Origin: a virus
Direction: 5' to 3' (one strand)
IMG/VR virus record: IMGVR_UViG_3300005253_000069
Coordinates: 1 to 41,794 of that record
Length of the DNA: 41,794 nucleotides
Under the pieces are notes generated by a model, which saw only the letters and a program-made list of their open reading frames with translations, was not told where the DNA came from and did not search any database. A program made the translations under genes and the position numbers. Below are positions 4,304 to 39,556 of this stretch, piece by piece. Each line of letters begins with the position of its first letter. The stretch's first letter is position 1.

Positions 4304-4328
4304 CGTATTTTCAATAATTGAAATTATG
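4304..4328. repeat. 25-bp near-palindromic motif, copy 1 (CGTATTTTCAATAATTGAAATTATG)
   Basis: One of five copies of CACATTTTCAATWWTTGAAATTATG. It lies 17 nt upstream of ATG 4286 (minus strand). Confidence 0.85.
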
Positions 4329-4331
4329 GCA

Positions 4332-4398
4332 AGCCTGTTCTGCGTAGTGTGTGCTTTGCTGCCATGTTAGCACGCTTGGCATCACACTCCAGAACAGG
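4332..4398. other. Long imperfect hairpin / candidate structured RNA element
   Basis: GCCTGTTCTG (4332-4341) pairs perfectly with CAGAACAGGC (4389-4398). Inner pairs are AGTGTG/CACACT, TGC/GCA and TGCT/AGCA. It lies in a 370-bp ORF-free island, directly beside palindrome copy 1. Confidence 0.5.
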
Positions 4399-4646
4399 CA
4401 AAAGATTACATTAGCCTCACTCTCCAGATTATTCCTTGTCTGTTAGGACTGGAGCATGTCATGATTTAGGGACAGTTCACCATTTAAGGTGTATAAAACT
4501 GTGCCCTCAGAGCACTTGCTAGTTCAATAATAAGCAGTCTGCTCCTTAATTTCCTTTAGGGTGAGAAGACATCCCTAAATGTCTCAGACGCATTGATGCT
4601 TATAGGGAAGCACAGTGAGACTTTAATCAATGAACGATTACCTTAG

Positions 4647-4688
4647 CCCACCCTGCCTTCAACACATACTTCATCTACTAGCAGGGTG
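4647..4688. other. 9-bp stem hairpin immediately downstream of the 4699-5004 gene
   Basis: CCACCCTGC (4647-4655) and GCAGGGTGG (4680-4688) with a 24-nt loop. There is no U-tract on either strand, so it is not a classical intrinsic terminator. Confidence 0.4.
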
Positions 4689-4698
4689 GACTGTGTAG

Positions 4699-5004
4699 TC
4701 AATATATCTTACATTCAAAGGACTTGTCATCTCTAAAGAACTCAAACTTTTTCTCTGTTATATGGAAGCTTCCTATCTTATACCCTCTAGTCCATATTTC
4801 TACATGAGTATGTTCATTACTATAGTAGGGGTCATGCTTAAACTTAATAACTATATCTCCCCCGCCAAACCCTGCTATTCTAACTTCTTGGTCTTTACAT
4901 ACCATCTCTTGTGAGCTCTTCCAATCCTCAACAATCTCATAAACCTCCTCATTATGCCTTCTTAACACCCCTAACAGCTTCTCACTACGTTGCTTGTCAT
5001 TCAT
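4699..5004 (-). CDS. Hypothetical protein
   Basis: 101-aa ORF whose start overlaps the upstream gene's stop region. Confidence 0.6.
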   Translation of the reverse strand: MNDKQRSEKLLGVLRRHNEEVYEIVEDWKSSQEMVCKDQEVRIAGFGGGDIVIKFKHDPYYSNEHTHVEIWTRGYKIGSFHITEKKFEFFRDDKSFECKIY

Positions 5005-5176
5005 TTCTTACCTCCTGTGGATGATTGACAAAAGTTTCTCTTGCTTCATCGTCTCCATCAGCTTTGCCCTCATACATTATTATTCCACCACCACACTCAG
5101 GGCATCTGTCTGCAACACCCTTACCATCATATATAAAGAACTCATCACATTTAGCACACCAGTATCTAGTCTTCAT
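4997..5176 (-). CDS. Small zinc-ribbon protein
   Basis: The track ORF starts at 5239, but ATG 5176 follows GAAGGAG and overlaps the upstream stop (ATGA). This gives 59 aa, MKTRYWCAKCDEFF...CPECGG, with two CxxC pairs. Confidence 0.6.
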   Translation of the reverse strand: MKTRYWCAKCDEFFIYDGKGVADRCPECGGGIIMYEGKADGDDEARETFVNHPQEVRNE

Positions 5177-5966: not shown

Positions 5967-6037
5967 TTTACTTCCTCCCTCGCCTCCTTCGCCCTCTTCA
6001 CTGCCCGAAGTCTGAGTTGGTTGGCAGTAAGTTTTGG

Positions 6038-6711: not shown

Positions 6712-6736
6712 CTTATTTTCAATTATTGAATTTGTG
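6712..6736. repeat. 25-bp near-palindromic motif, copy 2 (CTTATTTTCAATTATTGAATTTGTG)
   Basis: The most diverged of the five copies. It lies 16 nt upstream of ATG 6695 (minus strand). Confidence 0.75.
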
Positions 6737-6744: not shown

Positions 6745-6894
6745 CTACAACTGCACACACTTATATACATTAGCCACCTCACTACAGACTGACCCAAGTG
6801 GACACTCCACACACACCTCAGCTCCATAGCCTTTATCTTCCTTCTCATTATGACAGTCATCAACCATGTCTGCTAATAGTTCTAATGTAATCAT
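6745..6894 (-). CDS. Cys-rich micro-protein (49 aa)
   Basis: MITLELLADMVDDCHNEKEDKGYGAEVCVECPLGSVCSEVANVYKCVQL, with SD GGAGGTGAGTAGAATG. It is below the ORF-track cut-off. Confidence 0.4.
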   Translation of the reverse strand: MITLELLADMVDDCHNEKEDKGYGAEVCVECPLGSVCSEVANVYKCVQL

Positions 6895-6919: not shown

Positions 6920-7120
6920 TTACTTTGTCAACTCTTCAAACTGCTTATCTACTGCAACCTTCTGCCACGCCTTCCCAGCCCTAAAGCCTAAGTAGAATAA
7001 CTCCATTGGCTTTTCTAGTAGAGCCTCCTTCTTTTTTGTTGCATAGTATTTTGCTTCTTCTATTGTCATTTTGTTATGCCTCTTTTGTGTTACTAAACCA
7101 AAACCAAGCCCACCATCCAC
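6920..7120 (-). CDS. Hypothetical protein (first leftward gene)
   Basis: 66-aa ORF. An alternative start is M18 (MTIEEAKYY) at 7069. It is the first ORF downstream of the leftward promoter. Confidence 0.5.
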   Translation of the reverse strand: MDGGLGFGLVTQKRHNKMTIEEAKYYATKKKEALLEKPMELFYLGFRAGKAWQKVAVDKQFEELTK

Positions 7121-7247
7121 CCGATGGTATAGACTTTAGTGTTCATTTAATAGTATCTTATTAACAATGTTATACTTAAACCTCTACTTCAACAACCGTT
7201 TGTCAATGAGCCTGTAGATAGTGCTACCGAATTCTGTATTTTCAATC

Positions 7248-7275
7248 ATTATACAACAACTGACAGGAAAGTCAA
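7248..7275 (-). promoter_or_regulatory. Leftward sigma70-type promoter (TTGACT-16-TATAAT)
   Basis: The reverse complement of 7241-7280 reads acatcTTGACTttcctgtcagttgttgTATAATgattgaa. A half-site of the 25-bp palindrome (GTATTTTCAAT, 7236-7246) abuts the -10 and transcription-start region. Confidence 0.6.
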
Positions 7276-7353
7276 GATGTCGGAAATTGGACAGTTCAAC
7301 CCTTGAAAATGCCAAAGAGGGGTAAACTCAGGAAACTCCAACTGAACACTTTG

Positions 7354-7378
7354 AACCCTATCCTAAAGCCAATCTAAC
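7354..7378 (+). repeat. 25-bp direct repeat, copy 1 (AACCCTATCCTAAAGCCAATCTAAC)
   Basis: Exact copy at 7724-7748. Each copy is preceded by a GAACACT iteron, and together they bracket the iteron and AT-rich core. Confidence 0.9.
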
Positions 7379-7570
7379 AAAACAGCCAAAACAAATACCT
7401 CATTACAGCGGTTTTGAAAGAGGTTGTAACTGACAACTATAACACAGACTAGGATAGTGTTTAAGCCTCGTTGACAACCAAAACCTGAACACTTTGAACA
7501 CTATAACCCACTATAGGCTAAGGTTATAGTGTTCAGGCGCAAATATCCTTTATCCTTTCCCCACTCTTTC

Positions 7571-7598
7571 TTATTATATATATAATTTGTATGAATAT
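7571..7598. other. AT-rich block (candidate DNA-unwinding element) followed by two G6 runs
   Basis: ttattatatatataatttgtatgaatat contains only 3 G and no C in 28 nt and sits in the centre of the iteron array. GGGGGGAGGGGGG follows at 7612-7624. Confidence 0.45.
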
Positions 7599-7723
7599 GA
7601 GGAGAAAAAGAGGGGGGAGGGGGGTCACCTGAACACCTGAACACTTTACGTTTTTCAATACAGTCGTGGGTTATAGTGTTCAGAAAGCCAAAAATGAACA
7701 CTACGGAACACTTGGAACACTAT

Positions 7724-7748
7724 AACCCTATCCTAAAGCCAATCTAAC
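7724..7748 (+). repeat. 25-bp direct repeat, copy 2
   Basis: Identical to 7354-7378. Confidence 0.9.
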
Positions 7749-7811
7749 TTTTTTGGGGTTCGGAAAAGTTGGATTGCCTGTTAATTTGACACTGTGAATG
7801 ACAGGGGGGAC

Positions 7812-7839
7812 TTGACAAAAGTTTTATTTGTGATATAAT
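7812..7839 (+). promoter_or_regulatory. Rightward sigma70-type promoter with extended -10 (TTGACA-16-TGaTATAAT)
   Basis: TTGACA at 7812-7817, a 16-nt spacer ending TGa, TATAAT at 7834-7839. The SD GAGGGGGTGA and ATG 7881 lie about 40 nt downstream. Confidence 0.75.
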
Positions 7840-7880: not shown

Positions 7881-8081
7881 ATGAGTATTGCAAGGGATAT
7901 ACTAAGAGCAAATAACAATTTCTATCAGAACTACGGAGCAGTTACAGGTTGGCACAACGGAAGGCTAGTTATGAAAGAGGGGGTTGTAATAGATAGTAAG
8001 TGGTATATAGACAAAGTGGGTTGTTTCCTGATTGACCTACTACAGAAACGAAAGAAGAGAGGAGGTGTTAACGAATGGTAG
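7881..8081 (+). CDS. Hypothetical early protein
   Basis: 66-aa ORF, the first gene after the rightward promoter, with a strong SD. Confidence 0.6.
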   Translation: MSIARDILRANNNFYQNYGAVTGWHNGRLVMKEGVVIDSKWYIDKVGCFLIDLLQKRKKRGGVNEW

Positions 8082-8263
8082 TAAACTTAAAAGACTACGA
8101 AATTAGAATACTTAAAGCTTTATTATGGGAAGGGGTTGACAACTTAAGGGGGACAAAAGACATTGGTAGTTTGTTAGAAGAGAAGAAAAAGTTGTTAATG
8201 AAGAATATGGAAGTGGTGCATAAGAAACTAGAAGAAAGTGAGGTGATACAAGATGAAGGATAA
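8075..8263 (+). CDS. Hypothetical early protein
   Basis: 62-aa ORF whose start overlaps the upstream stop. Confidence 0.55.
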   Translation: MVVNLKDYEIRILKALLWEGVDNLRGTKDIGSLLEEKKKLLMKNMEVVHKKLEESEVIQDEG

Positions 8264-8543
8264 AGTTGTAGTAGTGAGAACAGTAACTAAAGAGGGTGAA
8301 GCTAAGGAGTCACAGGTTACACTATCAATGCCAGAGGATTTGACAGAGGCATCAAGGGAGTGGAGCAAGGATAGTGTGTTCAAGCTAGCCTGTAGAATGT
8401 TCGTGTTGGATAAAACCAATGCGGAGAGAGTGGCACTTAGAGGGGGAGAGGCTAAGCTTGCACGCAAAGAGGCTAGTGACCTGGCCAAACAACTATTGGC
8501 TGATCCAGAACTATTGGCTAAGATTAAGAAACAACTGAGCTAG
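8253..8543 (+). CDS. Hypothetical early protein
   Basis: 96-aa ORF overlapping the upstream gene. It is charged and probably helical. Confidence 0.6.
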   Translation: MKDKVVVVRTVTKEGEAKESQVTLSMPEDLTEASREWSKDSVFKLACRMFVLDKTNAERVALRGGEAKLARKEASDLAKQLLADPELLAKIKKQLS

Positions 8544-8572
8544 GTAGCTAATAGGGAGTAGTAGGTGATGTG

Positions 8573-8616
8573 AGAGGGGGTAGGGTATAACAACCTTGCT
8601 CCCTCTTTTCTGTTTG
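8573..8616 (+). terminator. Candidate intrinsic terminator of the small rightward operon
   Basis: AGAGGG (8573-8578) pairs with CCCTCT (8601-8606). An inner AGGGT/ACCTT stem is present, followed by TTTTCTGTTT. It lies 30 nt after the 8543 stop. Confidence 0.4.
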
Positions 8617-8714
8617 GGTAACATAAACAGCGTTTTTGAGAATGAGGGAAATATGGCGTATTTGGGTTGACCCTGTGTCAAAATAGGCAAAATGGAGAGC
8701 TATCCCATAAAATA

Positions 8715-8854
8715 GATCATATAGGGTTGATAGTGGGGATCAACATTGTTAGATCTAAGGAGATTGTGGGGGGTGATCCCAGTTTTTGTGAAGATAGATA
8801 GATCTAAGGATCTGAGATTGTAGGATCTGATAATCTTAGGATCAGGATCACCCC
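8715..8854. repeat. GATC / AGGATC repeat cluster bounded by a 10-bp inverted repeat
   Basis: Nine GATC sites start at 8715, 8738, 8752, 8775, 8801, 8809, 8824, 8840 and 8846. AGATCTAAGGA occurs twice (8751, 8800) and (A/T)AGGATC four times. GGGGTGATCC (8770-8779) is inverted as GGATCACCCC (8845-8854). Confidence 0.85.
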
Positions 8855-9267
8855 CTCTGTCTCTGTCTGCTTTTTCACTCTCTTGAATTAGCCTGGTTGT
8901 TAACATCACTTCAAATGTTGTCAAAATCTCCTAAAAATACATAGGTTTATGGGGGGTAGCGTGGATAGTTTTACATACCCCTGTATGTTTCATCATTAGT
9001 AATATTACCCCTGTAGAAGAGGCTAAGATTGCGTCATTTTGTATAGACGTGGGCGTGTAGCGAGTTATAGGAACGTGAGATATATGGGAAAGCGTGAAAC
9101 CCCCCACCGCCCTATTATATATATAGGGCTTCCCCTCATTTTCTGCACCAAAAAAATTGGGTTCGGGTGTAATCCACTATCCATCAGTGTTTCAGAGATT
9201 TCCACAATTTCAACCACAAAAATTCCGAAATTTCCAAAACCCGCTATCCATCACCATCTACACCCCC

Positions 9268-9296
9268 TTGACATCAGGAGGGGTTTGTACTATAAT
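9268..9296 (+). promoter_or_regulatory. Perfect-consensus sigma70 promoter (TTGACA-17-TATAAT) for the packaging/virion arm
   Basis: TTGACA at 9268-9273, a 17-nt spacer, TATAAT at 9291-9296. An A/T-rich phased upstream region (9190-9240) precedes it, and AAGGAG plus ATG 9332 lie downstream. Confidence 0.75.
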
Positions 9297-9331
9297 ATAG
9301 CTAGAATACCGTTACATCAAAGGAGTATGTT

Positions 9332-10724: not shown

Positions 10725-10811
10725 ATGTTTACCATATTTGGCTGGTTGTTGGTTGCTGCTGTAGGTTATCTAACTTATCTTGAGATAAAAGAGGGTGTTG
10801 AATGGAGTTAA
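10725..10811 (+). CDS. Micro-ORF, single-pass membrane peptide (28 aa)
   Basis: MFTIFGWLLVAAVGYLTYLEIKEGVEWS, with SD AGGAGGA 5 nt upstream. The stop overlaps the TerL start region. Confidence 0.4.
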   Translation: MFTIFGWLLVAAVGYLTYLEIKEGVEWS

Positions 10812-12340
10812 GTAAGAGGCACCAGAAGGCTAGGGAGAAGGCTAAAAGCAGCCTCTTCCACACTGCTAAATACATCCTAGGTTATGATGACCTGACTGAA
10901 GACTTTCATAAGCCATATTGTGACTTCCTTCAAGATTTGGATGTACATAGGAAACAGGTTGAGATGCCTCGAGGTTTTTTGAAAACAACAGTAGCATCAA
11001 TCAGCTTCCCCATTTGGGTTACACTCAAATTTCCTAATGTCAGGATACTCCTAGCCAACATGGTGTATGATAACGCTGCTAAGTGTATTCATATCATCAG
11101 AGGCCACTGGCAACATAATGCGAGGCTTAGGGCACTCTTTCCAGAGTTGGTGTATCCAAGCTACAACAAAACCAGATGGAGTGACTCATGTGCAGAGGTT
11201 AAGCGAAGTGCAAATTGGGGTGAGGGTACTTATGAGTCTATAGGGGTGGCTGGTAGTAAGATAGGGATGCATTATGATATGGTTATTGAGGATGACTTAG
11301 TTGCTGCTAAGAAGGATAAACTGACTGGACAAGAGATACTTCCTAACCAAGAGGATATACAGAAGGCCATTGGGTGGCACGGGTTGGCACTTAACCTGCT
11401 TATCTCTCCTAGAAAAGGTTACATCTACAACATAGGTACTAGGTGGGGGCAGTATGACCTAATTCGTCACATCGTTGACAATCAGACTTATTATAAACGA
11501 TTTGTGCGTAGGGCAGTAGAGTTTGATGAGGGTGGGAAGGCGCTGTTGGATGATGATGGTAATTACATCCCCACATGGTCAGGTAGGTTTGATGGTGAGG
11601 CACTGAAAGAGGTTCAAGAAGAGCAGGGTGATTATCTATTTTCTATGATGTATCTAGGCAAGCCTTATAATGTTGAGGACATGATTTTTAGGGATGAGTG
11701 GATTAAGGACAAGGCAGAAAGTTCAATAGGGAATGTTTATGGAGGTATAGACTCTGCACTCACCAAGAAAAGCTACTCAGACTTCACAGTCATCGGTGCA
11801 GTTGTTGTTACTAAAGAGAAGGACTTCTGTGTTGAACATATTGTAAGGGGGAAGTTTAACCCCACAGAGATTATAAACAAGTTGTTTGAGGTGCAAGATG
11901 CATTCCACCCTAAATGGTTTGCGATGGAGAAGGCACTACATGAGATTGTCCTCGCTCATTACATCAGAGAGAGGAATAAGGAAAGGCTGGATAGTGACCT
12001 CGAGCCAGTAGTTATCAAACCTGTTAAGCGTCCAAAAGGTGAGAGTAAAGGGATGCATGTAAGAGCTATGCAGCCGATGTGCATGGCAGGAAGGTTTTAT
12101 ATTAGACCGTGGATGAGGATAGTGAGGATGGAGATGCTTGAGTTTACAGGTAAGGGGACTGATAAGCATGATGATATTCCTGACATGCTTGCTGATATAT
12201 TTGCGAGTATTAGATACCCCCAAGCTGATGTGCCTCAAGAGGTTAGAGATCCATTCTCAGTTGATGCAGTTATAGAAGAGTTGTTGGGTAAAGAAGATGA
12301 GAGAACGAGGCGCAGACACTACTGGCCTATGTATGCATGA
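10802..12340 (+). CDS. terL: Terminase large subunit
   Basis: 512 aa. The N-terminal ATPase has a Walker-A-like PRGFLKTT and Walker-B YDMVIEDDL. The C-terminal RNase-H-like nuclease has acidic motifs GIDSALTK and KHDDIPDMLAD. Size and position are typical. Confidence 0.85.
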   Translation: MELSKRHQKAREKAKSSLFHTAKYILGYDDLTEDFHKPYCDFLQDLDVHRKQVEMPRGFLKTTVASISFPIWVTLKFPNVRILLANMVYDNAAKCIHIIRGHWQHNARLRALFPELVYPSYNKTRWSDSCAEVKRSANWGEGTYESIGVAGSKIGMHYDMVIEDDLVAAKKDKLTGQEILPNQEDIQKAIGWHGLALNLLISPRKGYIYNIGTRWGQYDLIRHIVDNQTYYKRFVRRAVEFDEGGKALLDDDGNYIPTWSGRFDGEALKEVQEEQGDYLFSMMYLGKPYNVEDMIFRDEWIKDKAESSIGNVYGGIDSALTKKSYSDFTVIGAVVVTKEKDFCVEHIVRGKFNPTEIINKLFEVQDAFHPKWFAMEKALHEIVLAHYIRERNKERLDSDLEPVVIKPVKRPKGESKGMHVRAMQPMCMAGRFYIRPWMRIVRMEMLEFTGKGTDKHDDIPDMLADIFASIRYPQADVPQEVRDPFSVDAVIEELLGKEDERTRRRHYWPMYA

Positions 12341-12344
12341 GGTT

Positions 12345-12369
12345 CACATTTTCAATTATTGAAATTATG
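12345..12369. repeat. 25-bp near-palindromic motif, copy 3 (CACATTTTCAATTATTGAAATTATG)
   Basis: Starts 5 nt after the TerL stop and ends 17 nt upstream of ATG 12387 (plus strand). Confidence 0.9.
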
Positions 12370-12386
12370 AACTCAGGTAGGTTAAG

Positions 12387-12566
12387 ATGGCATTTCTTAA
12401 TGTGATTCCTAGACCCCTTTATGCTGGTAACCATGATGTTTATTGTGGAGATGCCAGGTTTTATGCAGGTTATAGAGGAGTAGGTGTTACATGGTCAGAT
12501 GTTAGTGCAGCGTCAACATCTTGGAATGATGTTGCTGCACCCTCAACAAGCTGGACAGATGTATAG
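12387..12566 (+). CDS. Small protein with STSW-DV tandem repeats (59 aa)
   Basis: MAFLNVIPRPLYAGNHDVYCGDARFYAGYRGVGVTWSDVSAASTSWNDVAAPSTSWTDV. Three tandem xW(S/N/T)DV units at the C-terminus. One codon below the track cut-off. Confidence 0.4.
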   Translation: MAFLNVIPRPLYAGNHDVYCGDARFYAGYRGVGVTWSDVSAASTSWNDVAAPSTSWTDV

Positions 12567-12575
12567 GAGAATGAG

Positions 12576-13433
12576 ATGGCTATAGCAGTAGTAGATAATA
12601 GTAGTCCTACATCGGGGAATTTGAATGATGTGGCCTGGGATGCATATAATGCTACAGTAGCAGCATTACTGACAGAACACGATTCCGCTGGTGCTCATAA
12701 CCTGACAGCCTATGTTACAAAGGCATTGTTTGATGCAAATACTATCCTTTATACTACTACTGATGATACACCAGTGGCATTGACTGTGGCAGCTTCTAGG
12801 ATAATAGGAAGAGCTTCCTCGGGGGCTATTGCTGCTTTAACTGCTGCTCAAGTTCTCACCTTGATAGGGGTGGAGAGTGGAGCTACTGCTGACCAAACTG
12901 AGGCTGATATACTAACCCTCTTGGGATTGACATCAGGTGAGGTTGACCAAGTAGGAAACTTAGGAGCTACTACCGTCAGCGCAACACAATGGGGTTACGT
13001 AGGGGCGATGACCAAAGACCCTATTGGTGGAGATGCAACAGCTGGAAGAATAGTAAGGACATCTTATATTACCATCGCTAATGGGTCAAATGCGTCAACT
13101 TTGAAGTGTACCCTTGTAAGTAGGTGGAACGGTGATGCCATCGCCGAAACCGATAATGTAGCAAAGGGTGCTACAACAGGTAGCTTTACGCTTGATGCAG
13201 CAGGAACGCATCTTAGGGTGGAAGCTGCTGGTCTTACTGGCAATGTTTTATACACACTAGCCAACATAATTCATAATGCTTCAAATACAAGCATATCAAC
13301 GTGGACAGAAGCTGATGCTAACGATATCGAAATCCAACTAAAGCTTATAACTACAGGAACAGCTCAAGACATGACTGTTTTAGTAGATACAGGAATTATA
13401 TTACTTGATATTCTTTATATAACAGATGCTTAG
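12576..13433 (+). CDS. Tail-fibre-like / receptor-binding candidate
   Basis: 285 aa, Ala/Thr/Gly-rich. The LIGVESGATADQTEADIL segment resembles the K-L-x-G-I-E-x-G-A motif common in phage fibre proteins. The C-terminal half looks beta-rich. Confidence 0.45.
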   Translation: MAIAVVDNSSPTSGNLNDVAWDAYNATVAALLTEHDSAGAHNLTAYVTKALFDANTILYTTTDDTPVALTVAASRIIGRASSGAIAALTAAQVLTLIGVESGATADQTEADILTLLGLTSGEVDQVGNLGATTVSATQWGYVGAMTKDPIGGDATAGRIVRTSYITIANGSNASTLKCTLVSRWNGDAIAETDNVAKGATTGSFTLDAAGTHLRVEAAGLTGNVLYTLANIIHNASNTSISTWTEADANDIEIQLKLITTGTAQDMTVLVDTGIILLDILYITDA

Positions 13434-13442
13434 GAGAGGTAA

Positions 13443-13616
13443 TTGGTTGATAAGGGTAAAGAAAAGAAGTTGACATTAAAAGAACAGCTCCAAAAAGACA
13501 TACTAGGCTACAACCAGCAAATTGTCAACCTCGCTGCGCAGACAAATCAGGTTATTGGTCAGATTAAGGAGGCTAGAGGCATCTTGGAGTTTATAAAGAA
13601 GGAAGAAGATGGCTGA
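13443..13616 (+). CDS. Possible coiled-coil small protein (57 aa, TTG start)
   Basis: TTG 13443 after AGGAGAGG. Reads VDKGKEKKLTLKEQLQKDILGYNQQIVNLAAQTNQVIGQIKEARGILEFIKKEEDG. The stop overlaps ATG 13609. Confidence 0.35.
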   Translation: MVDKGKEKKLTLKEQLQKDILGYNQQIVNLAAQTNQVIGQIKEARGILEFIKKEEDG

Positions 13617-14460
13617 GTTGTATAAACCTATATCAATAAGTGAGAGCGGGGGTGACAAGAACTTCAAAAGGGTTGTTGATGATAACTTCATCAACCTTGC
13701 GAGGCATCTTAATGATATCAGGCAATGGATTGATATACAGAAGCTAGATATTGACTTGGATGATATTGATGATGGTTCAAGTCATGTGAAGATGACGACT
13801 GCTGAGGATAGTAAGCTAGGAGGGATAGAGTCATTAGCTGATGTAACTGGAGACCACGAAGCAGCTACAATAGCTTCTCAAGGAAGCTTAGCTACTATGA
13901 GTGCAATTACTTCTGGTATTGATGTTGCTGCTCTCCAGGGTAGGTTGGTTTATGATAACACCCTTGCAGCCAATGCTACTTCTGTTACTCTATCTGGTCT
14001 AAGTGGAGATACTGACAAGGAGTATTTTATTGTAGCAAAATGGGTGAGGAATGGTGCTCTTAATGGTGGAGGGGGTAATTTTGGTGTTCAGTGTAATGGT
14101 GATACTGGGGTAAGTAACTATGGGTGGGAAACTATTTATAATGCTACAGGTGGTGGCAACAATGCTACAGGATGGAACGACCACACATGGTTTATGCTTT
14201 GGATGGGTAGGGCAGATACAGATGGGTATTTATCTATGGGTTATGGACATCTTTTAGCAGAGAGTGGATATGAAAGGATGCTTATAGGACAAATGCTTAG
14301 ACAGATTGACCCAACTGGTCACACTACACATAGCCTCTATTCCATGGGATGTACTTGGTGGAACTCGGTAGATGAAATAACCAACCTTCAATTTCTTGGA
14401 GAAGATGCAACATCAATGAAGATTGGGACACATCTTTTATTATATAAGAGGACAGCATAA
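13609..14460 (+). CDS. Tail-fibre-like / receptor-binding candidate
   Basis: 283 aa. HVKMTTAEDSKLGGIESLADVT matches the fibre-type x-E-x-x-K-L-x-G-I-E motif. The C-terminal domain is Gly/Asn/Trp-rich. Confidence 0.45.
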   Translation: MAELYKPISISESGGDKNFKRVVDDNFINLARHLNDIRQWIDIQKLDIDLDDIDDGSSHVKMTTAEDSKLGGIESLADVTGDHEAATIASQGSLATMSAITSGIDVAALQGRLVYDNTLAANATSVTLSGLSGDTDKEYFIVAKWVRNGALNGGGGNFGVQCNGDTGVSNYGWETIYNATGGGNNATGWNDHTWFMLWMGRADTDGYLSMGYGHLLAESGYERMLIGQMLRQIDPTGHTTHSLYSMGCTWWNSVDEITNLQFLGEDATSMKIGTHLLLYKRTA

Positions 14461-14705
14461 TGGATGTCGTTGAAGAAAGAGAATTTGAAGATACTGATGG
14501 TACGAAGGTTTATAGAAAGATTGGGGTTGGTAAGGACAAGTTTTTGGAGGAAGTAACTCATCTAGTACCAAGCCAGGCATTTATAGACAATGTTATCAAG
14601 CCGAGGAACTTGGTGTCTAAGCGATATAGAGATAAGGAAGAAAAGGCTGCGAAGATGCAGAAGAAGTATAAAGAATGGTATGAAAAGAAGTTTGGAGGTA
14701 ATTAA
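14460..14705 (+). CDS. Hypothetical protein
   Basis: 81-aa charged ORF, coupled to the upstream gene (TAATG). Confidence 0.55.
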   Translation: MDVVEEREFEDTDGTKVYRKIGVGKDKFLEEVTHLVPSQAFIDNVIKPRNLVSKRYRDKEEKAAKMQKKYKEWYEKKFGGN

Positions 14706-14864
14706 ATGTTCTGCCCGCAGCAGAGGTGTAAGCACTGGAGTGAAGCAACAAAGTATAACCGTAAGTGTTATTATGAAGTTCAATGCTGGAGAGGAATGAT
14801 TGATGAGTTTCTTGGACTCTTTGATTTAATAAGGAGAAGAGATGCCATACAAGAGGAAAAATAA
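14706..14864 (+). CDS. Possible 4-Cys micro-protein (52 aa)
   Basis: TAAATG coupling. Reads MFCPQQRCKHWSEATKYNRKCYYEVQCWRGMIDEF.... Below the track cut-off. Confidence 0.3.
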   Translation: MFCPQQRCKHWSEATKYNRKCYYEVQCWRGMIDEFLGLFDLIRRRDAIQEEK

Positions 14865-15060
14865 AACTGTTTACAAGAAGGTTGATGGGTTGAAGAAGAA
14901 AGGCAAGTCTAAGAGTGTTAAGAAGGCTAAGAGTTATATGAGAGTGTTGCAGGGTGTAGAGCATGGATGGAAGCCTACAGGCGTATCAACTAAGAAGAGT
15001 GCTTGGAAGGGTGGCAGTAGACAAGGTGTTAAGAAGGTGAAGAATGCCAAAAAGCGTTGA
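14842..15060 (+). CDS. Very basic Lys-rich protein
   Basis: 72 aa, roughly one third Lys/Arg (MPYKRKNKTVYKKVDGLKKKGKSKSVKKAKS...KKVKNAKKR), with SD AAGGAGAAGAGATG. Lies immediately upstream of the portal gene. Confidence 0.5.
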   Translation: MPYKRKNKTVYKKVDGLKKKGKSKSVKKAKSYMRVLQGVEHGWKPTGVSTKKSAWKGGSRQGVKKVKNAKKR

Positions 15061-16720
15061 GCTGTTAGAACAATGGAAGTCTGAGATAAGGAAGGCCATC
15101 AAGTATAGAGAGGACTTTGCTCTATCCAAGAGTTGGAAGAGATACTATGCCTACTATCGAGGACAGAAGAGGTCGGGGATATACTCCGTTAACAAGTATT
15201 TTAGTATGTTGAGGAGTGGTATACCTCGTATATACTTCCGCAATCCTAAGATTGTTGCAGCACCTACTCGACCTGGGTTTGAGGCATCAGCAGCAGTCGT
15301 TCAATCGGTTGATAATCATATCCTCAGGGAGATAAACATCAAGCAGACGATGAAGGCTGTGGTGCAAGATGCATTCTTCTGTAACAAGGGGTTTGTTAAA
15401 GTTGGGTATTCTAGAGAGTTTGGGGCATTACCACAGGTGGGAACAAAGACGCTTCCAGCAGATGAGGATATTGAGTATAATGTTTCGGTGAAGGAAGGGA
15501 TGCCGTGGGCATTGAGGACTAGCCCCGAGAGCTTCCTTGTGAAGTGGGGGACATCAACCTTGAATGATGTACAATGGGTTGCACATAAGGTGGTTAGACT
15601 ACTCGATGATGTTAAGAAAGATCCTATGTATGTTAATACATCCAAGCTTCAGGGTGGTTATGTTAGAGAGCTTAGGGGAAAGAAAGAGGGTGAGATGCTG
15701 GTATCCGAGCAAACGAAGTCGAGCCAGCAGGTGCAACTTTCTAGCAAGGGTGAAGAGGGAGAACAGTGGGTTGAGATATATGAGATTAGAGATGCGAAGA
15801 GGGGGGAGATACTTGCTATCAACCTCGACCATGATAAATTCCTGAGGAGTCCATCAAAGGATGAGTTGCAGATAGAGGGTGTTCCTTACGTCGACCTCTG
15901 TTTTAATCCTGATAATGATGTATTTTGGGGGCCGAGTGATGCAACGCTGTTAGAGTCGCATCAGAAGGAGATAAATGATGTCAAGTCTCAGATAAGTATG
16001 CACAGAAGGATTAACCTCATTAAGTTTTTGTATGATAGTGATTTGCTGACAAAGGAGAAGTTTGAGGCATTGATGTCGGGACAAATAGGTGGAGGGTTGG
16101 GCATCCCAGGGGTTACGAAGAATGCAATTATTGCTCTTCAGCCTGGTGAACCCTTGATACTTAAGCAAGATGCTATTGAGATTGAGCGTGACATTAACGA
16201 AACCCTTGGATTCCCTAGAACGGAGGCAGGGGAGTATGCTGGACCGCCTCGCAGAACTGCTAAAGAAGTTGAACAAGTATCCCAAGCTCATTGGATAAGG
16301 ATGGATGAACGAAGAGACTTGCTTGCTGACTTCCTTGTTAATGTTGTGAGGAAGATAAATCAGATTATCTTTACTAACTGGACAACGGAGCATGTAGCTC
16401 CAGTAGTTGGGCCAGACAAAGCCATTTATTGGGTTAAGTATACAGGGGCGCAGATTATGGGTGAGTATGACTTTACTGTTAATATAGACACTGGTAAGCC
16501 CATCACCATGGATACCAGGAGGGCAGAGGCAGAGAGGATTCTTGACAAGGTGAAGGGTGATCCTAATGCAGCGCAGTTTGTGAATGTTCAGGAGTTGTGG
16601 AAAAATGCCCTCAGTCTATATGACTGGATTGATGTTGATAAGATAATGAAAACATCTCAGACAGGGGCGCAGGTTACTGACATGGCAGGGCTTCAACAGA
16701 TGTTTGGGAGGGGAGCATGA
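15044..16720 (+). CDS. Portal protein (candidate)
   Basis: 558 aa. This is the only portal-sized ORF between terminase and the scaffold/capsid genes. The call rests on size and position, not a diagnostic motif. Confidence 0.65.
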   Translation: MPKSVELLEQWKSEIRKAIKYREDFALSKSWKRYYAYYRGQKRSGIYSVNKYFSMLRSGIPRIYFRNPKIVAAPTRPGFEASAAVVQSVDNHILREINIKQTMKAVVQDAFFCNKGFVKVGYSREFGALPQVGTKTLPADEDIEYNVSVKEGMPWALRTSPESFLVKWGTSTLNDVQWVAHKVVRLLDDVKKDPMYVNTSKLQGGYVRELRGKKEGEMLVSEQTKSSQQVQLSSKGEEGEQWVEIYEIRDAKRGEILAINLDHDKFLRSPSKDELQIEGVPYVDLCFNPDNDVFWGPSDATLLESHQKEINDVKSQISMHRRINLIKFLYDSDLLTKEKFEALMSGQIGGGLGIPGVTKNAIIALQPGEPLILKQDAIEIERDINETLGFPRTEAGEYAGPPRRTAKEVEQVSQAHWIRMDERRDLLADFLVNVVRKINQIIFTNWTTEHVAPVVGPDKAIYWVKYTGAQIMGEYDFTVNIDTGKPITMDTRRAEAERILDKVKGDPNAAQFVNVQELWKNALSLYDWIDVDKIMKTSQTGAQVTDMAGLQQMFGRGA

Positions 16721-26093: not shown

Positions 26094-26118
26094 CACATTT
26101 TCAATAATTGAAATTATG
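26094..26118. repeat. 25-bp near-palindromic motif, copy 4 (CACATTTTCAATAATTGAAATTATG)
   Basis: Starts 9 nt after the 26085 stop and ends 18 nt upstream of ATG 26137 (plus strand). Confidence 0.9.
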
Positions 26119-34803: not shown

Positions 34804-37065
34804 TTACGATACTTCATCCCAAGTCATTCCTTCTTTGATGTCCGCAGGTATCTTAACCTTCCTTCCCTCTACCTCTATCTCAACCTCAACAGCTCGTTTA
34901 ATCATAGCATACAACTCCTCTCTATGTTTGTTTAAGTAGTCCTCATTGATGTTAATAACTATTGCATCGTGTATCTGTAACACAATCCTCGCTTCCCTCG
35001 GCAGACAAAAGTGAAGCCTCGTTAGTCCTATGTTAGTGTAGTCACCCACCGTTGACTGAGGCACGAATGCATATGCCTTCCTAAACATATCAGCCCCCCA
35101 TCTGTCAAAGAACGCCCTCCGTCTACCCAGCGGAGTTGCTAACATCTTAGTTCTCCTCAGCATATTCTCAACCTTCAAGTGCCATATCTTGAGTTTGGGG
35201 TAGGTAGCATAGTAGGTGTTAAGTGCCTTCTTGGAGTCACCATAGCTTAGGCCCGTCAACTTAGAGAACTTCCCATGACCAATAGCATAATTACCTGCAT
35301 GCACCAGCGTCTTCCCCAATCTACGCTGTTCGGATGTTACATCCTTCTCACCTACCCCAAAGATGTTCGAGGCATTCTTCCTGTGAACATCACCACCCTC
35401 TTCAAATATCTTCATGAAGTGGATGTCCTCGCTGAGGTAAGCTACAACTCTAGCCTCAGCCTGACTAAGGTCAACGCCTATAAACTTACACTCCTCGTCA
35501 GGAAGGAAGAAGCTTCGGGCATCACCCTTAGGTACGTTCTGGAGGTTAACATCCTTACTGGCCAACCTCCCAGTGTCGGTGCCTGAGATGATGTAATGTG
35601 TCCTCATCCTCCCATCAGCACAAGGCTTGGCATCAAGGAAGGTTGATTTTAGTGTTCTTATCTCCCTTATCTTAAGAATGAGTCCAAGCACTTTCAGGTT
35701 AAACTTAGCATTCAACTCCTTAAGCGCATCCTTGTTTGTAGTTATCTTTCCCTTCTTATACTTAGGTGGAAGATTGAGCTCCTCATATAGAAACTTAGCC
35801 ACCTGTGGCTTGGAACATACATTCAACGGATGTCCAACAGCTTCCTCCAGCTTGCTCTCCATGTTCTCAATCTTAACTCCTGCATCATCAGATAGCTCTT
35901 GTTTTCGTTTTGCATCTATCCCCACCCCATATCCTTGTATCATCCTTAGAGGTTTAATCAACGGATGCAACACCTGCCTGTAAAATCTATCAACCTTCAG
36001 CTCCTTCATCTCAGCCTCTAGGGCTAATGCCACCTCGAGGGTGACTGCAGCATCTAGGTTACAATACCTCCAGAGGTCGGTTGAACTCATCCATTTGTAG
36101 TATGGTTCGTCAGTATAAATTGATGTCTGAAAATCAAGAGCCTTAGGTAGCTCAGGGTAGCATAGATGGTGAGCATTCATAGTGTCCATCCACAAATCCT
36201 CAACGTGGACACCATGCCTCTCAAGGTGAGCTATGTCAAAGTTAGCGTTTTGGGCAACCTTAGGTATGTCACTCCCCAGGATTTTAGAGATACACCTCCA
36301 AACCTCCATCTCATCAGTGGTTGTTTTCCAATAATCACGCTTCTTATCCCTCGTCAACAGAGGGAAACACCATGACCTCCATGGAGTTATAGCAAATGCG
36401 ATACAAGCTATGTCAGCATCATCCTCAAGTCCACGAGTTTCTATGTCAAAACTAATATACTTAGCACCCTTGAGGATGGTTTCTGTCCACCGCTGGATAG
36501 TATTAACCAGCCTGGGGTCGTCAAACAGTGCTCTAAATGGAGGCTCAAACTCTTGAACGAAGGATTGCTTCTTAGCCTTAGCTAAATCACACACACCTAT
36601 CTGCCTCCACAACCAATTACGCATAATTCCTGCTGGGTGGTAGGTGGGGATTACCTTTACACCACCCAGCTTGGAGGGATAGATAATACTCCCCCTCCAT
36701 TTACCAACACCTACATGTTCTGTAAGTGCCTTCAATGCTTCGTTGCCGAGAGCAACTACAACATTTGGGTTGATTAGCATCAGGTCTTTCACCAACCTAG
36801 CCCTTCCTTCTATCAGTGGAGGCAGAGGTCTAGTCCTCTTCTTATCCTCATAAAAGACTCCGAAGTTATTGCCTGATGGGCGTACTTGCATAACGTTGTC
36901 TACATAACAATCTTCTCTATCAATGCCAGCTTCTACTAGCATCCTATCTAGGAGTTGGCCTGATGTACCTACGAAGGATACACCTTCCCTGTCTTCGTCA
37001 CGGCCTGGTGCTTCACCTATGAGGGCTATGCTAGCATCACGAGGGCCGAAGCCTTTTACTATCAT
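34804..37065 (-). CDS. Family-A DNA polymerase with 3'-5' exonuclease and N-terminal UDG-family-4-like domain
   Basis: 753 aa. UDG-like motifs: LIGEAPGRDEDREGVSFVGTSGQLL and IPTYHPAG. Exo motifs: FDIETRG (I), NANFDIAHL (II), YCNLDAAVT (III). Pol motifs: DLSQAEARVVAY (A), RRLGKTLVHAGNYAIG (B), LQIHDAIV (C). Confidence 0.9.
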   Translation of the reverse strand: MIVKGFGPRDASIALIGEAPGRDEDREGVSFVGTSGQLLDRMLVEAGIDREDCYVDNVMQVRPSGNNFGVFYEDKKRTRPLPPLIEGRARLVKDLMLINPNVVVALGNEALKALTEHVGVGKWRGSIIYPSKLGGVKVIPTYHPAGIMRNWLWRQIGVCDLAKAKKQSFVQEFEPPFRALFDDPRLVNTIQRWTETILKGAKYISFDIETRGLEDDADIACIAFAITPWRSWCFPLLTRDKKRDYWKTTTDEMEVWRCISKILGSDIPKVAQNANFDIAHLERHGVHVEDLWMDTMNAHHLCYPELPKALDFQTSIYTDEPYYKWMSSTDLWRYCNLDAAVTLEVALALEAEMKELKVDRFYRQVLHPLIKPLRMIQGYGVGIDAKRKQELSDDAGVKIENMESKLEEAVGHPLNVCSKPQVAKFLYEELNLPPKYKKGKITTNKDALKELNAKFNLKVLGLILKIREIRTLKSTFLDAKPCADGRMRTHYIISGTDTGRLASKDVNLQNVPKGDARSFFLPDEECKFIGVDLSQAEARVVAYLSEDIHFMKIFEEGGDVHRKNASNIFGVGEKDVTSEQRRLGKTLVHAGNYAIGHGKFSKLTGLSYGDSKKALNTYYATYPKLKIWHLKVENMLRRTKMLATPLGRRRAFFDRWGADMFRKAYAFVPQSTVGDYTNIGLTRLHFCLPREARIVLQIHDAIVININEDYLNKHREELYAMIKRAVEVEIEVEGRKVKIPADIKEGMTWDEVS

Positions 37066-37231
37066 ATTTTATCCCTCCTTCCCCGCCTTTTCCTAGCAAT
37101 CTACAATTCAATATGAGTGCTTCTATCCCCTCTATTATAAGAGACCCTTCTATCTTGAGGTTGATTGCTACCTCCCTCTTACCTGCAATCTTTCTCAACA
37201 ACCACCATCTAAGTTTAATTATCCACATCAT
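37037..37231 (-). CDS. Hypothetical small protein (W-rich hydrophobic N-terminus)
   Basis: 64 aa, SD AGGAGGG 8 nt upstream. Overlaps the polymerase start by 29 nt. Confidence 0.4.
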   Translation of the reverse strand: MMWIIKLRWWLLRKIAGKREVAINLKIEGSLIIEGIEALILNCRLLGKGGEGGIKYDSKRLRPS

Positions 37232-37243
37232 TTATAAGCCCTC

Positions 37244-37471
37244 CTAATGTGCCACAATTATCTTCTTCCTCGGTGGAGCAACAACCTGCATCTCCGACAC
37301 CTGCCCCCTGGCATCTCTAACCTTCAACACAATATCATCCCCACTCCACCCACATTCCATAGTTACCATCGAGTCCTTAAAGGCGAGACTCATCCTTCGA
37401 TGCTGTTTATCAAGTGCTACACTAACTATGATGTGTGCGGAGGCTTTAGCCAGTTCTTGGATTGGTATCAT
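37244..37471 (-). CDS. Hypothetical protein
   Basis: 75-aa ORF coupled to the methyltransferase stop (ATGA). Confidence 0.5.
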   Translation of the reverse strand: MIPIQELAKASAHIIVSVALDKQHRRMSLAFKDSMVTMECGWSGDDIVLKVRDARGQVSEMQVVAPPRKKIIVAH

Positions 37472-38724
37472 TTTTCTACTCCTAACCGTCTCATACGCTC
37501 ACATATCCCATTATAACTATCCTTATCCTTCTCAACAAGGATACAATCTCTCTTAGCCCTCAGTGCAGCCTCACCAACACACCCACTTCCAGCAAAGGGG
37601 TCGAGTACAAGCTCACCAGGAAGTGTAGATGTCTCTATCAACACCTGCATCAACGCCACTGGCTTCTCGGTTGGATGTATCCTTAGTCTAGAGGGTACAA
37701 TCTTATAGCTCAGGACATCCAGTGGATTCCTATTCAGCGGTCTACTCCCCTTCATACAATGCAGGATACCCTCATAAGACCTACTCCAATCCTCAGGATT
37801 AGCTGCAGAACTTGAAGTACCCTTACTCCATATAAGGAGTATGTCATCAACATCAAAACCAGCCTCCTTAAGAAGCTTAGTAATGTCTTTCTTCCTTGCG
37901 CTAGCGATAAAGACATACGCATGCCTATCATCCTTGAGGTTGTTATACATAGCTTTGAATGCTCCCCTCAACATATCATCAGTCTCATACTCTCTATCCT
38001 CAAAGATTTCATCTCGCTTAAACTTCTTGTAGGCTTTACCGCTTGTAGGTAGGTCAACCCCATATGGAGGATCAGTAAGCACAAGGTCAGCCTTCACCTT
38101 CAACTTTGGGACAATTACCCTGCAATCCCCCAGATGAACATCATCAACAGGCTCAGCATTAGCTAGTCTTTTCTGTATCTCAGTCTGAATGGCCTGTTCC
38201 TTAAGCCTCTTCATCTTCTTGAACGCAGCGGTTTTAGTCTTCTCATCCTTGAGCTGAGGATACATCCCTAGCCCCTTAGCCAGCTGTATATCCATACTAA
38301 CCTGCCCCATGCTCTCACCCAGGGATGTCGCAGTATCCTTCACGCCCCACCCATCACTCTTATGCCCCTTAGTGGCTGTGCCATAGATGGACTTCTTGAT
38401 GCTGTCAAGGAGTAGCTTAGCCTGTACCTCCTCCTGCCACGTAAACGCCTTCCTCTTAATATTCTCCTCAAGCTCAATCTCAGCACGTTCCATCTCACTA
38501 AGGTTCTTCAGCTCATTGACCTCAATCTCCTCAAGGCCTAAATACAGATGTGCCTTGAACCTCCTCTCCCCCGCAACCAGCTCCCACTCACCTCCATTGT
38601 CTTTGTTAACAACGATGGGGTGGAGTAAGCCATACTTCTGGATTGATTGAGCTAGCCCAGTGATGTCACCATACTCCTCTCTTACTCTCTTACCTACTTT
38701 GATGTCAGCTAGTTTTAGTTTCAT
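37468..38724 (-). CDS. ParB-like nuclease domain fused to beta-class N6A/N4C DNA methyltransferase
   Basis: 418 aa. The N-terminal ParB/Srx-type segment is LAQSIQKYGLLHPIVV...LVAGERRFKA. The methyltransferase has motif IV LVLTDPPYG before motif I LDPFAGSGCVGEAA, which is the beta-class order. Confidence 0.9.
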   Translation of the reverse strand: MKLKLADIKVGKRVREEYGDITGLAQSIQKYGLLHPIVVNKDNGGEWELVAGERRFKAHLYLGLEEIEVNELKNLSEMERAEIELEENIKRKAFTWQEEVQAKLLLDSIKKSIYGTATKGHKSDGWGVKDTATSLGESMGQVSMDIQLAKGLGMYPQLKDEKTKTAAFKKMKRLKEQAIQTEIQKRLANAEPVDDVHLGDCRVIVPKLKVKADLVLTDPPYGVDLPTSGKAYKKFKRDEIFEDREYETDDMLRGAFKAMYNNLKDDRHAYVFIASARKKDITKLLKEAGFDVDDILLIWSKGTSSSAANPEDWSRSYEGILHCMKGSRPLNRNPLDVLSYKIVPSRLRIHPTEKPVALMQVLIETSTLPGELVLDPFAGSGCVGEAALRAKRDCILVEKDKDSYNGICERMRRLGVEK

Positions 38725-38954
38725 TTAGCCTCCTTTAGCTTCTTGCCACAAACAGGACAGTAGTATATGATAAGTCCAAGCTCTTTTCCATCAGCATTTG
38801 TATCATATGAACCACATCCTTCCGTGTCTATAGCAAAAAAGAACCTCTTGTCTTGATGCCAATTTATCCTTCCAAAAGGGAAACTTTCATTCTTGATGTT
38901 TATACATCCCTTACATTCACTCATCTCTTCCTCCTCCACTTCCAAATTCCCCAC
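38721..38954 (-). CDS. Zinc-ribbon small protein
   Basis: 77 aa with CKGC near the N-terminus and CPVCGKK at the C-terminus. Confidence 0.55.
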   Translation of the reverse strand: MGNLEVEEEEMSECKGCINIKNESFPFGRINWHQDKRFFFAIDTEGCGSYDTNADGKELGLIIYYCPVCGKKLKEAK

Positions 38955-39130
38955 AATGCCAGTACAAAATACACTGCCATCAACACCCCCTGAGCAGGTA
39001 TCTCTTCCTTAAAATCAATAATCATCCACGCAAAATTAGTACCTGCCCAGATTACAAAACACAGCCTTTTTTTATAGATGTTGAGCACCACACCCACGAG
39101 GGATAGTGCTGCTATTATCCAATAGGTCAT
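38921..39130 (-). CDS. Three-TM mini membrane protein, PnuC-repeat-like
   Basis: 69 aa. LVGVVLNIYKKRLCFVIWAGTNFAWMIIDF...VYFVLALWGIWKW resembles the N..KK..W..W and Y....GW..W signatures of PnuC-type transporters. Three predicted TM helices. Confidence 0.4.
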   Translation of the reverse strand: MTYWIIAALSLVGVVLNIYKKRLCFVIWAGTNFAWMIIDFKEEIPAQGVLMAVYFVLALWGIWKWRRKR

Positions 39131-39324
39131 ATTTTGAGAACCTTTTTTACTACATCCTTAAACCCACTATCTAAGCCTTGAATGAACTCAATAATCTCAT
39201 TTTGGTTTGAGACTAGCTGTACTAGGAGCTTGTACGCCTCAGGTTTACCTTCTAAATCAGCTAAATCGCCTGAAGGCATGTTTATCTTTTCCATTTTATT
39301 CCCCCACCGTACCATCATTCCCAA
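39127..39324 (-). CDS. Hypothetical protein
   Basis: 65-aa ORF. The more likely start is the internal MEKINMPSG at 39294. Confidence 0.4.
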   Translation of the reverse strand: MGMMVRWGNKMEKINMPSGDLADLEGKPEAYKLLVQLVSNQNEIIEFIQGLDSGFKDVVKKVLKI

Positions 39325-39556
39325 CCCTATGCCCCAAAACCTTAGATGGTCTCAACCTCCTGCCCACATTTTCAATTTTTGAAATTACGGTAGGCTTCCT
39401 CTTCCACCCCTGCTTCTTAAGAAAAGTCTTCGTTCTAACATAAACACCCTCTGCATCAAATGATGTACTATACTCAGTGCGTGAATGGATAAAATTATCT
39501 TTAAGCTCCAGTGTCCTCTCTGCCCTGCCTTTGATTAACACTACCTTTGCGTTCAT
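39296..39556 (-). CDS. Hypothetical basic protein (contains palindrome copy 5 in its 3' third)
   Basis: 86 aa with an excellent SD (AAGGAGG, 6 nt). The C-terminal 30 codons run through the 25-bp motif and an SD-like GCAGGAGGTTG. Confidence 0.45.
   Translation of the reverse strand: MNAKVVLIKGRAERTLELKDNFIHSRTEYSTSFDAEGVYVRTKTFLKKQGWKRKPTVISKIENVGRRLRPSKVLGHRVGNDGTVGE
39365..39389. repeat. 25-bp near-palindromic motif, copy 5 (CACATTTTCAATTTTTGAAATTACG)
   Basis: On the minus strand it is followed by GGCAGGAGGTTGAGACC, then ATC TAA where copies 1-4 have ATG. This is the same GCAGGAGGTTG context as copy 1. Confidence 0.8.

Follow-up and report, generated by a model that had tools for sequence, protein, structure and literature searches.

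Long phage operons are usually assumed to be controlled at promoters and terminators only, and dispersed operator-like repeats indicate that some phages also exert control at individual gene junctions. In Cluster O mycobacteriophages, 17-bp repeats of the form TGTTCGG-NNN-CCGAACA (TGTTCGGNNNCCGAACA) are present in more than 30 copies per genome; their function is not settled, and a DNA-binding regulator is suspected (PMC4351075). The stoperators of Cluster A mycobacteriophages such as L5 and Bxb1, which are temperate, are asymmetric 13-bp sites that are recognized by a monomeric immunity repressor and whose orientation follows transcription (PMC9283540, PMC6550527). In Cluster K, start-associated sequences (SAS) are asymmetric 13-mers that contain the Shine-Dalgarno (SD) sequence and lie 3-8 nt from the start codon in a fixed orientation, while extended SAS (ESAS) have arms of 17 bp and a spacer of 4-13 bp (PMC3203893). 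Among these three groups, only the stoperators have an established binder and mechanism. Here we describe a 25-bp near-palindrome that occurs five times in IMGVR_UViG_3300005253_000069, an uncultured tailed phage from a marine sediment metagenome (LCGC14; PRJNA259156). The stretch analyzed, hereafter the window, is its complete, circularly permuted genome of 41,794 bp, and a JGI contig spans the junction of the window's two ends. The 25-mers are a real, non-random and conserved cis element. We tentatively favour, with somewhat less than even confidence, the reading that they are double-stranded DNA sites of a sequence-specific dimer, most likely the phage's own 96-aa early protein, and that they would serve as operator and roadblock-like sites.

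The genome consists of a leftward arm, which runs from ~7120 through position 1 and on to 32795, and a rightward arm spanning 7881-32791, which encodes three early genes followed by TerS-like, TerL, portal, capsid and tail genes. A stretch free of open reading frames (ORFs) that is rich in iterons and has an AT-rich part separates the two arms. The five full sites are listed below, with scores, where given, from a position weight matrix (PWM) built from 17 copies.

4304-4328: full site, copy 1 (CGTATTTTCAATAATTGAAATTATG), 37.4 bits; between a 370-nt ORF-free stretch and the SD and ATG 4286 of a leftward 62-aa gene
6712-6736: full site, copy 2 (CTTATTTTCAATTATTGAATTTGTG), 32.9 bits; 8 nt past the stop of a 49-aa gene (6745-6894) and 16 nt ahead of ATG 6695
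12345-12369: full site, copy 3, the positionally conserved post-TerL site; starts 4 nt past the TerL stop (12338-12340) and ends 17 nt ahead of ATG 12387
26094-26118: full site, copy 4, 40.0 bits; tail region, between a 573-aa gene (ending at 26085) and a 782-aa gene (ATG 26137)
39365-39389: full site, copy 5, 39.1 bits; within an 86-aa ORF (39296-39556) that reads through the site

All five 25-mers reported in the first-pass annotation of this DNA are present at these positions, and copies 1, 3, 4 and 5 fit the consensus given there with 0-2 mismatches, a four-copy match reached by none of 100 shuffles. Copy 2 differs from that consensus at four positions and retains the core with one mismatch. 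Scanning the window with the PWM recovered exactly five sites, at 33-41 bits, against a shuffle maximum of 11.7, and nothing between 12 and 30 bits other than reverse reads of the same five; a chance origin is thus not borne out. The minimal core, TTCAA-N3-TTGAA, was found six times in the window against 0.04 expected, with the sixth core located in the control region at 7295-7307. Four of the five full sites fall in non-coding DNA, and as the genome is ~90% coding and ~10% non-coding, this placement is not due to chance.

When the copies are aligned in a single orientation they read yryATTTTCAAT-N-(A/T)TTGAAATTAyr, with alignment positions 4-11 and 15-22 nearly invariant. The architecture is that of a 7-1-7 inverted repeat, TTTCAAT-N-ATTGAAA, in which the half-site centres are ~10 bp apart and the centre of the core is TWA, TTT or AAA. 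Full sites are wedged between the stop codon of the upstream gene, which lies 0-8 nt away and is sometimes the TAA of the arm itself, and the SD of the next gene. Reading the distances directly from the sequence gave 17, 16, 17 and 18 nt from the motif edge to ATG 4286, 6695, 12387 and 26137, respectively, with the SD in between, in agreement with the earlier description. This near-constancy in the window arises because the element fills the gap between the upstream stop and the next SD, and the idea of a fixed 16-18 nt spacing had to be abandoned: in related phages the 25-mer ends 7-18 nt before the start codon. As had been described, copy 5 shares GCAGGAGGTTG with copy 1, followed by ATC TAA in place of a start codon, and is enclosed by the 86-aa ORF; because its SD block is the same as that of copy 1 while the start codon is missing, copy 5 is probably a decayed gene junction or module. 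Copy 1 is exceptional in being preceded not by a stop codon but by the 370-nt ORF-free stretch. That stretch (4329-4698, minus strand), between copy 1 and the gene at 4699-5004, contains several long hairpins and folds far better than shuffled sequence (z = -4.9). It had no Rfam match, and may be a structured non-coding RNA, a leader or a second origin-like element.

The element is conserved in related phages. Nine lineages have their nearest core at -12 to +10 nt relative to the TerL stop, while TerL itself diverges widely from that of the window. The relatives, designated by locus numbers, are as follows.

L121/L122: TerL 95-96% identical; copy directly after TerL
L090/L204: TerL 72% identical; copy directly after TerL
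L193: TerL 33% identical; five copies, one directly after TerL
L194: TerL 23% identical; four full copies and a degenerate fifth, the nearest to TerL being a core variant ~120 nt past its stop
L208, L211, L212, L217 and L219: post-TerL copies

Occupied junctions other than the post-TerL junction differ between phages, as seen at the portal-distal junction of L204, where a copy is located at 11626 and the window has only a 9-nt gap. In L123 (TerL 74%) the same gene follows TerL as in the window, the motif is absent, and the TerL stop overlaps the SD of that gene. L118, L119 and L120 (TerL 58-61%) have no copies, though they are nearer to the window in TerL than some carriers of the motif, and the divergent control region is part of the L118 and L119 contigs. 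The element faces its downstream gene in no constant direction (10 versus 5), and the post-TerL copy of L090/L204 is flipped at its site relative to that of the window, with the preceding TGAGGT kept. The arms also vary by lineage, being ATTTTCAA/AATTTCAA in the window, AAGTTCAA on both sides in L217 and TAGTTTCAA/TAGCTTCAA in L212, which is the pattern expected if the site and a phage-encoded binder co-evolve.

The block of genes between TerL and portal in the window (12341-15043; products of 59, 285, 57, 283, 81 and 52 aa) is entirely unlike its counterpart in L204 (5711-9700; 214, 165, 163, 261 and 437 aa, with a Laminin_G_3 domain), and the latter is common to the motif-free L118 and L119. 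This TerL-portal block is a replaceable accessory module.

Half of the element also occurs on its own near promoters. The two half-sites previously noted at 7236-7246 and 7649-7660 are present, and together with the promoters and other partial sites they occupy the following positions.

7236-7246, minus strand: half-site ATTGAAAATAC, starting 1 nt downstream of the -10 of the leftward promoter (TATAAT-g-ATTGAAAATAC), an operator-like position; L090 has a counterpart
7275-7248, minus strand: leftward early promoter, TTGACT-16-TATAAT
7290-7312: degenerate sixth palindrome AGTTCAAcccTTGAAAATG, ~20-25 bp upstream of the leftward promoter -35; L090/L204 have a counterpart in the same place
7649-7660: half-site TTTTTCAATAC, in the ORF-free, iteron-rich, AT-rich origin-like stretch
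7812-7839, plus strand: near-perfect sigma-70 promoter
9205-9214: isolated half-site AATTTCAAC, ~55-60 bp upstream of the consensus promoter of the packaging/structural operon
9268-9296, plus strand: perfect TTGACA-17-TATAAT promoter ahead of the packaging/structural operon

Genome-wide, the half-site WTTTCAA is not enriched (18 observed versus 15.9 ± 3.8 expected), while the control region of the window contains three in 760 nt against ~0.3 expected, as estimated from the genome-wide rate. The control region of L090 holds five, and L193 has eight within 7086-7659 and seven within 8018-8958, some of them in tandem direct repeats spaced at 9-10 bp and others immediately following two early promoters. 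In L217, the TerS operon leader contains a full site, roughly 30-55 nt past the expected transcription start (estimated from the position of the -10), and a half-site follows the promoter of an early gene. The sequence TTTTCAATAC is found in the origin-like stretches of the window, L090 and L193, though the surrounding iterons differ.

These stretches have features of their own. Positions 7300-7780 of the window are ORF-free and look origin-like, with GAACACTTTGAAC and TATAGTGTTCAG repeat units, an AT-rich run (~7560-7600) and G-runs; the origin-like stretch of L090 has the same layout with different iterons (CTAAACATTATACATTA), and L193 has a second origin-like region (8040-8890) with GAATTACAC repeats. 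A further ORF-free stretch of 790 nt in the window (8544-9331) opens behind the three rightward early genes with a strong terminator-like hairpin (8572-8607) and closes with the promoter at 9268-9296.

The candidate for the protein that reads these sites is encoded next to the control region.

8253-8543, plus strand: gene of the 96-aa early protein (family A2/A3), in the early operon beside the divergent control region; candidate binder by co-occurrence and position only

Plain sequence searches found no small protein common to the window and L193, and profile methods did. The 96-aa protein is the best-conserved protein between the window and L090/L204 (89% identity), and its alignment with the product of the first early gene of L193 by hhalign gave a probability of 90% and an E-value of 1.5e-6 over 80 columns. 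The match is reciprocal, as the hidden Markov model (HMM) of each family ranks the other family best among non-self matches, and R48, D53, N56 and R59 are invariant across both subfamilies. A profile search yielded at least 229 family members. Of ten loci encoding the family, nine carry 2-6 cores (at most 0.09 expected in each), every one of them with a post-TerL copy, and both the family and the motif are absent from L118, L119 and L120. A Fisher test of this co-occurrence, in which L118, L119, L120 and L215 were counted as lacking both and no correction for phylogeny was applied, gave p ~0.005. In L193 and L217, half-sites closely follow the promoters of the A3 gene. As relatives keep the motif and the protein together, the motif is most likely the site of the 96-aa protein.

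Other candidates were considered and set aside. A TerS-like protein of 162 aa with a weak HTH_ParB match was rejected as the cognate factor because relatives without the motif encode it too. The window and the L193-type phages have a second early family in common, represented by a 125-aa protein in the window (3542-3919, minus strand; HMM E-values of ~2e-6 to 8e-6 against their proteins of 170-193 aa), which does not have a regulatory position. In the L193-type relatives (L193 10752-11840 and 13427-14044; L208 and L211), the early operon includes several radical SAM genes, some with SPASM domains, and an E1 dehydrogenase/thiamine pyrophosphate (TPP)-like gene; the window phage has none of these.

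Our preferred reading is that the early protein would dock as a dimer on the 7-1-7 sites. At the leftward promoter, the half-site at +1 and the degenerate palindrome upstream of the -35 may act as a classical operator, and the full sites inside the two long operons may be roadblocks or attenuators that divide these operons into expression blocks, with one block boundary always directly behind TerL. Genome replication might lift such blocks by diluting or titrating the regulator. The first-pass annotation had proposed a dimeric regulator on the basis of the fixed spacing to start codons. That basis has not survived, and the proposal itself has: a sequence-specific dimeric binder best fits the 7-1-7 symmetry, the ~10 bp between half-site centres, the isolated and tandem half-sites at promoters and the co-occurrence with the early protein. 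A broader version, which we regard as possible but doubtful, is that the small early family would form a new class of sequence-specific nucleic-acid binder that reads 7-1-7 sites between stops and SDs and times expression in the long operons of virulent-type phages, with a universal post-TerL checkpoint, the mode of action being a replication-titrated DNA roadblock or one that involves RNA as well as DNA.

Several observations weigh against the early protein as a dimeric DNA binder. L218 encodes a family protein and has no strict core, with diverged sequence at its post-TerL junction; the co-occurrence is drawn from a few, phylogenetically related lineages; and L194, which has the motif, stands outside the tally of protein and motif since its contig does not include the early region. 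The predicted structure of the 96-aa protein consists of a beta-hairpin and four helices, with a predicted local distance difference test (pLDDT) score of 79 and a predicted template modelling (pTM) score of only 0.49. Searching this model against the PDB and BFVD with Foldseek returned nothing at E <= 0.001, the sequence has no match in the PDB and no Pfam or consistent PHROG family, and no DNA-binding fold or family could be assigned to it from these searches. A PHROG match of one family member to a helix-turn-helix (HTH) DNA binding protein is treated as noise, as it was not reproduced over 37 members. Each of the 16 copies from the lineages of the window, L193 and L194 pairs a ATTTTCAA arm with a AATTTCAA arm, an asymmetry that a simple homodimer model leaves unexplained; it is lineage-specific, as both arms are AAGTTCAA in L217. 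Three further points are shared with an alternative in which the site is read as RNA. Every full site adjoins an SD, the 25-mer ending 7-18 nt ahead of the start codon. Both arms change together between lineages, from T-A to G-C in L217 and L208, as a hairpin would also predict. In L217 (10382-10414), directly after the small early protein gene, the palindrome is lengthened to a 15-pair terminator-like stem followed by a T-run, so that the motif is apparently built into the terminator of that gene and motif-containing RNA structures can exist.

In this RNA-level alternative, an element 5' of the SD, either an A-U hairpin or single-stranded, would be bound by a protein, possibly the same early protein, that represses translation, or would be a processing or stability signal. 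We consider it unlikely, while ranking it first among the alternatives. Since a palindromic sequence yields an identical hairpin whichever strand is transcribed, its presence in both operons would be accounted for; at ±8, the conserved T/T (or A/A) would form a fixed 1x1 internal loop; and several half-sites lie in transcribed leaders. Against this, the hairpin comprises only six A-U-rich pairs and a 3-nt loop, and fold energies of the 56-61-nt contexts are no different from those of shuffles (z of -1.5 to +1.2). In the 17-copy alignment, each of the six departures in the core stem disrupts a pair without compensation, and the outer pairs are at shuffle level. A hairpin cannot operate at half-sites in tandem direct repeats or at sites upstream of promoters. 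Rfam 15 gave no match at gathering score over the whole window, and none at E <= 1 around copy 1. Apart from the L217 hairpin, no intrinsic terminator or stable hairpin was indicated, as a terminator scan listed none of the five window sites. Recognition as double-stranded DNA is thus favoured on account of the weak folds, the lack of compensation, and the direct-repeat and promoter-upstream sites.

A DNA site need not be read by a phage protein, and the element could instead belong to the host, as the site of a global regulator or of a nucleoid, replication or segregation factor that is recruited by the phages of that host. This strikes us as less probable again. Phages that share only 23-33% identity in TerL have nearly the same motif, its patchy spread among relatives could follow host range, and the candidate phage protein has no recognizable DNA-binding fold. 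The 7-1-7 layout recalls Fur-family boxes, and TTTTCAATAC is placed beside phage-specific iterons in origin-like regions, much as DnaA or IHF sites adjoin iterons in plasmid origins. Pointing away from a host factor, the arm variants follow phage lineages and the presence of the motif tracks a phage protein family. In addition, an exact-pattern scan of 185,579 species genomes gave 43 scattered single matches in unrelated taxa and no genome with multiple copies, under a strict pattern and in a collection that may not include the host.

A regulatory protein would not be needed at all if the element were a selfish or structural palindrome that spreads between junctions by recombination or insertion, or a patch of homology for module exchange, which we judge improbable. 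Such spreading would account for the clean presence or absence of the motif at one junction, as in L123 without it, for the copy at 11626 of L204 opposite the 9-nt gap of the window, for the inversion in place of the post-TerL copy between lineages and for the differing genes downstream of that copy in the window and L204. It would also account for the adjacent SD block common to copies 1 and 5, which would then have been copied as a unit. It does not account for a core that is strongly conserved over deep divergence or for a post-TerL place kept in nine lineages, and the half-site clusters at promoters need a reader. The mosaic breakpoints between the window and L121/L122 are not at the motif, L118/L119 share the TerL-portal block of L204 without it, and no transposase or HUH gene was seen among the ORFs scanned.

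The weakest alternative, which we hold very improbable, is that the 25-mer is an extended -10 promoter (TGaAATTAT, or CATAAT on the other strand) from which host RNA polymerase, possibly with a phage factor, starts inside operons: one arm does read CATAAT/AATTAT, with TG before it in the plus-strand copies, and the leftward promoter with its half-site resembles half of the motif, but this suggestion of the earlier note fails because none of 16 copies has a conserved -35-like sequence at the required distance, a transcript with AATTAT as its -10 would begin within the SD, the -10-like arm faces the gene in only ~1/3 of copies and away from it in the rest, the motif sites do not outrank background matches in a consensus scan, those matches that overlap the motif (6722-6694 and 12359-12388) would put the -10 on the start codon, and the phage's genuine promoters conform almost perfectly to the sigma-70 consensus.

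A few other lines were followed and dropped. An orientation locked to the genome strand, as for nick sites or the polarity of packaging or replication, holds for 5/5 copies in the window, 4/5 in L193 and 3/5 in L194, which is not significant. A mini-ORF at an ATG near the end of the motif is inconsistent between copies. The motif is not a recombination breakpoint, as the mosaic junctions among the window, L121 and L122 lie elsewhere. Marine viral contigs with TACATTTTCAATAATTGAAATAATA are chance matches in a conserved coding region of unrelated phages, and a literature search for exact 15-mers found nothing.

The remaining gene content of the window is that of a tailed phage, with the following landmarks.

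10802-12340, plus strand: TerL
15044-16720, plus strand: portal
17798-18781, plus strand: major capsid protein
leftward arm, minus strand: small early genes, PD-(D/E)XK nuclease, AAA_24, DUF669, Hydrolase_2 lysin, ParB_N-methyltransferase, uracil-DNA glycosylase-PolA (UDG-PolA) and DUF3987 genes

The family A DNA polymerase (34804-37065, minus strand; 753 aa) combines N-terminal uracil-DNA-glycosylase-superfamily and 3'-5' exonuclease domains in one protein. After the DUF669 gene, an ORF-poor gap (~520-690, minus strand) contains a tRNA-like 3' half with a GGGTTCGAATCCCTC T-arm and a matching acceptor-like GGAGAGG...CCTCTCCA; ARAGORN calls no tRNA there and Rfam gives only sub-threshold T-arm matches, and the element may be an interrupted or degenerate tRNA. 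Comparison of the window with isolated phages by megablast and tblastn gave no near match and one remote portal match without a host, and so no clue to the host.

As a motif the element is of a common type; the conserved post-TerL position and a co-occurring protein family that matches no known fold make it a good experimental target. The early protein and the 25-mer form a testable protein-site pair, with natural specificity variants in the ATTTTCAA, AAGTTCAA and TAGTTTCAA lineages, and a portable regulatory part if binding is confirmed. Two familiar types of repeat resemble the element only in part. T4-type promoter-early-stem-loop (PeSL) cassettes consist of a sigma-70 early promoter and a GC-containing stem-loop; they are alike in placing repeated sequences at junctions, with presence/absence polymorphism and mosaic gene content, while the promoter and the GC stem-loop are absent here. 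The parS site is a 16-bp palindrome, TGTTNCACGTGAAACA, with abutting arms. The present element has only TTTCA/TGAAA in common with it, and its arms are 3-5 bp further apart. The phage does encode a ParB_N domain, fused to a methyltransferase, and no HTH domain is reported for that protein.

The Cluster O repeats are closest in architecture, as both have 7-bp arms around a T- or A-rich centre of 3 bp (here TTCAA-N3-TTGAA) and are dispersed, intergenic or at gene 5' ends, and free in orientation (PMC4351075). The sequence of the present element is unrelated, there are 5-6 copies per genome rather than more than 30, and a conserved post-TerL place and a co-occurring protein family are found here and are not reported there (PMC4351075). 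The hosts also differ, being actinobacterial for Cluster O and a marine-sediment bacterium here. SAS and ESAS are closest in position, in that these repeats lie directly upstream of the start codons of a subset of genes and ESAS are imperfect inverted repeats; they are conserved across subclusters ahead of unrelated genes, and whether a host or phage factor reads them, as DNA or as RNA, was left open there too (PMC3203893). The element described here differs in being a compact 7-1-7 palindrome that lies upstream of and separate from the SD, 7-18 nt from the start codon. Stoperators are closest in proposed action, with the same site at an early promoter and at many short intergenic positions in operons, where a bound protein blocks elongation, as is inferred here (PMC9283540, PMC6550527). 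In the window, the combination of early-promoter and intergenic sites is seen in five junction sites, the half-site at +1 and the degenerate palindrome upstream. Unlike the asymmetric stoperators with their orientation rule, the element is a 7-1-7 palindrome whose arm asymmetry points either way (10 versus 5). Stoperator phages are temperate, whereas the ORFs scanned in the window yielded neither an integrase nor a known repressor domain. Thus, the element fits no named family and is a further case of dispersed operator-like repeats in phage genomes, adding to them an uncultured sediment phage clade with a short, clean element, a fixed post-TerL place while TerL identity drops to 33%, and one co-occurring small protein family.

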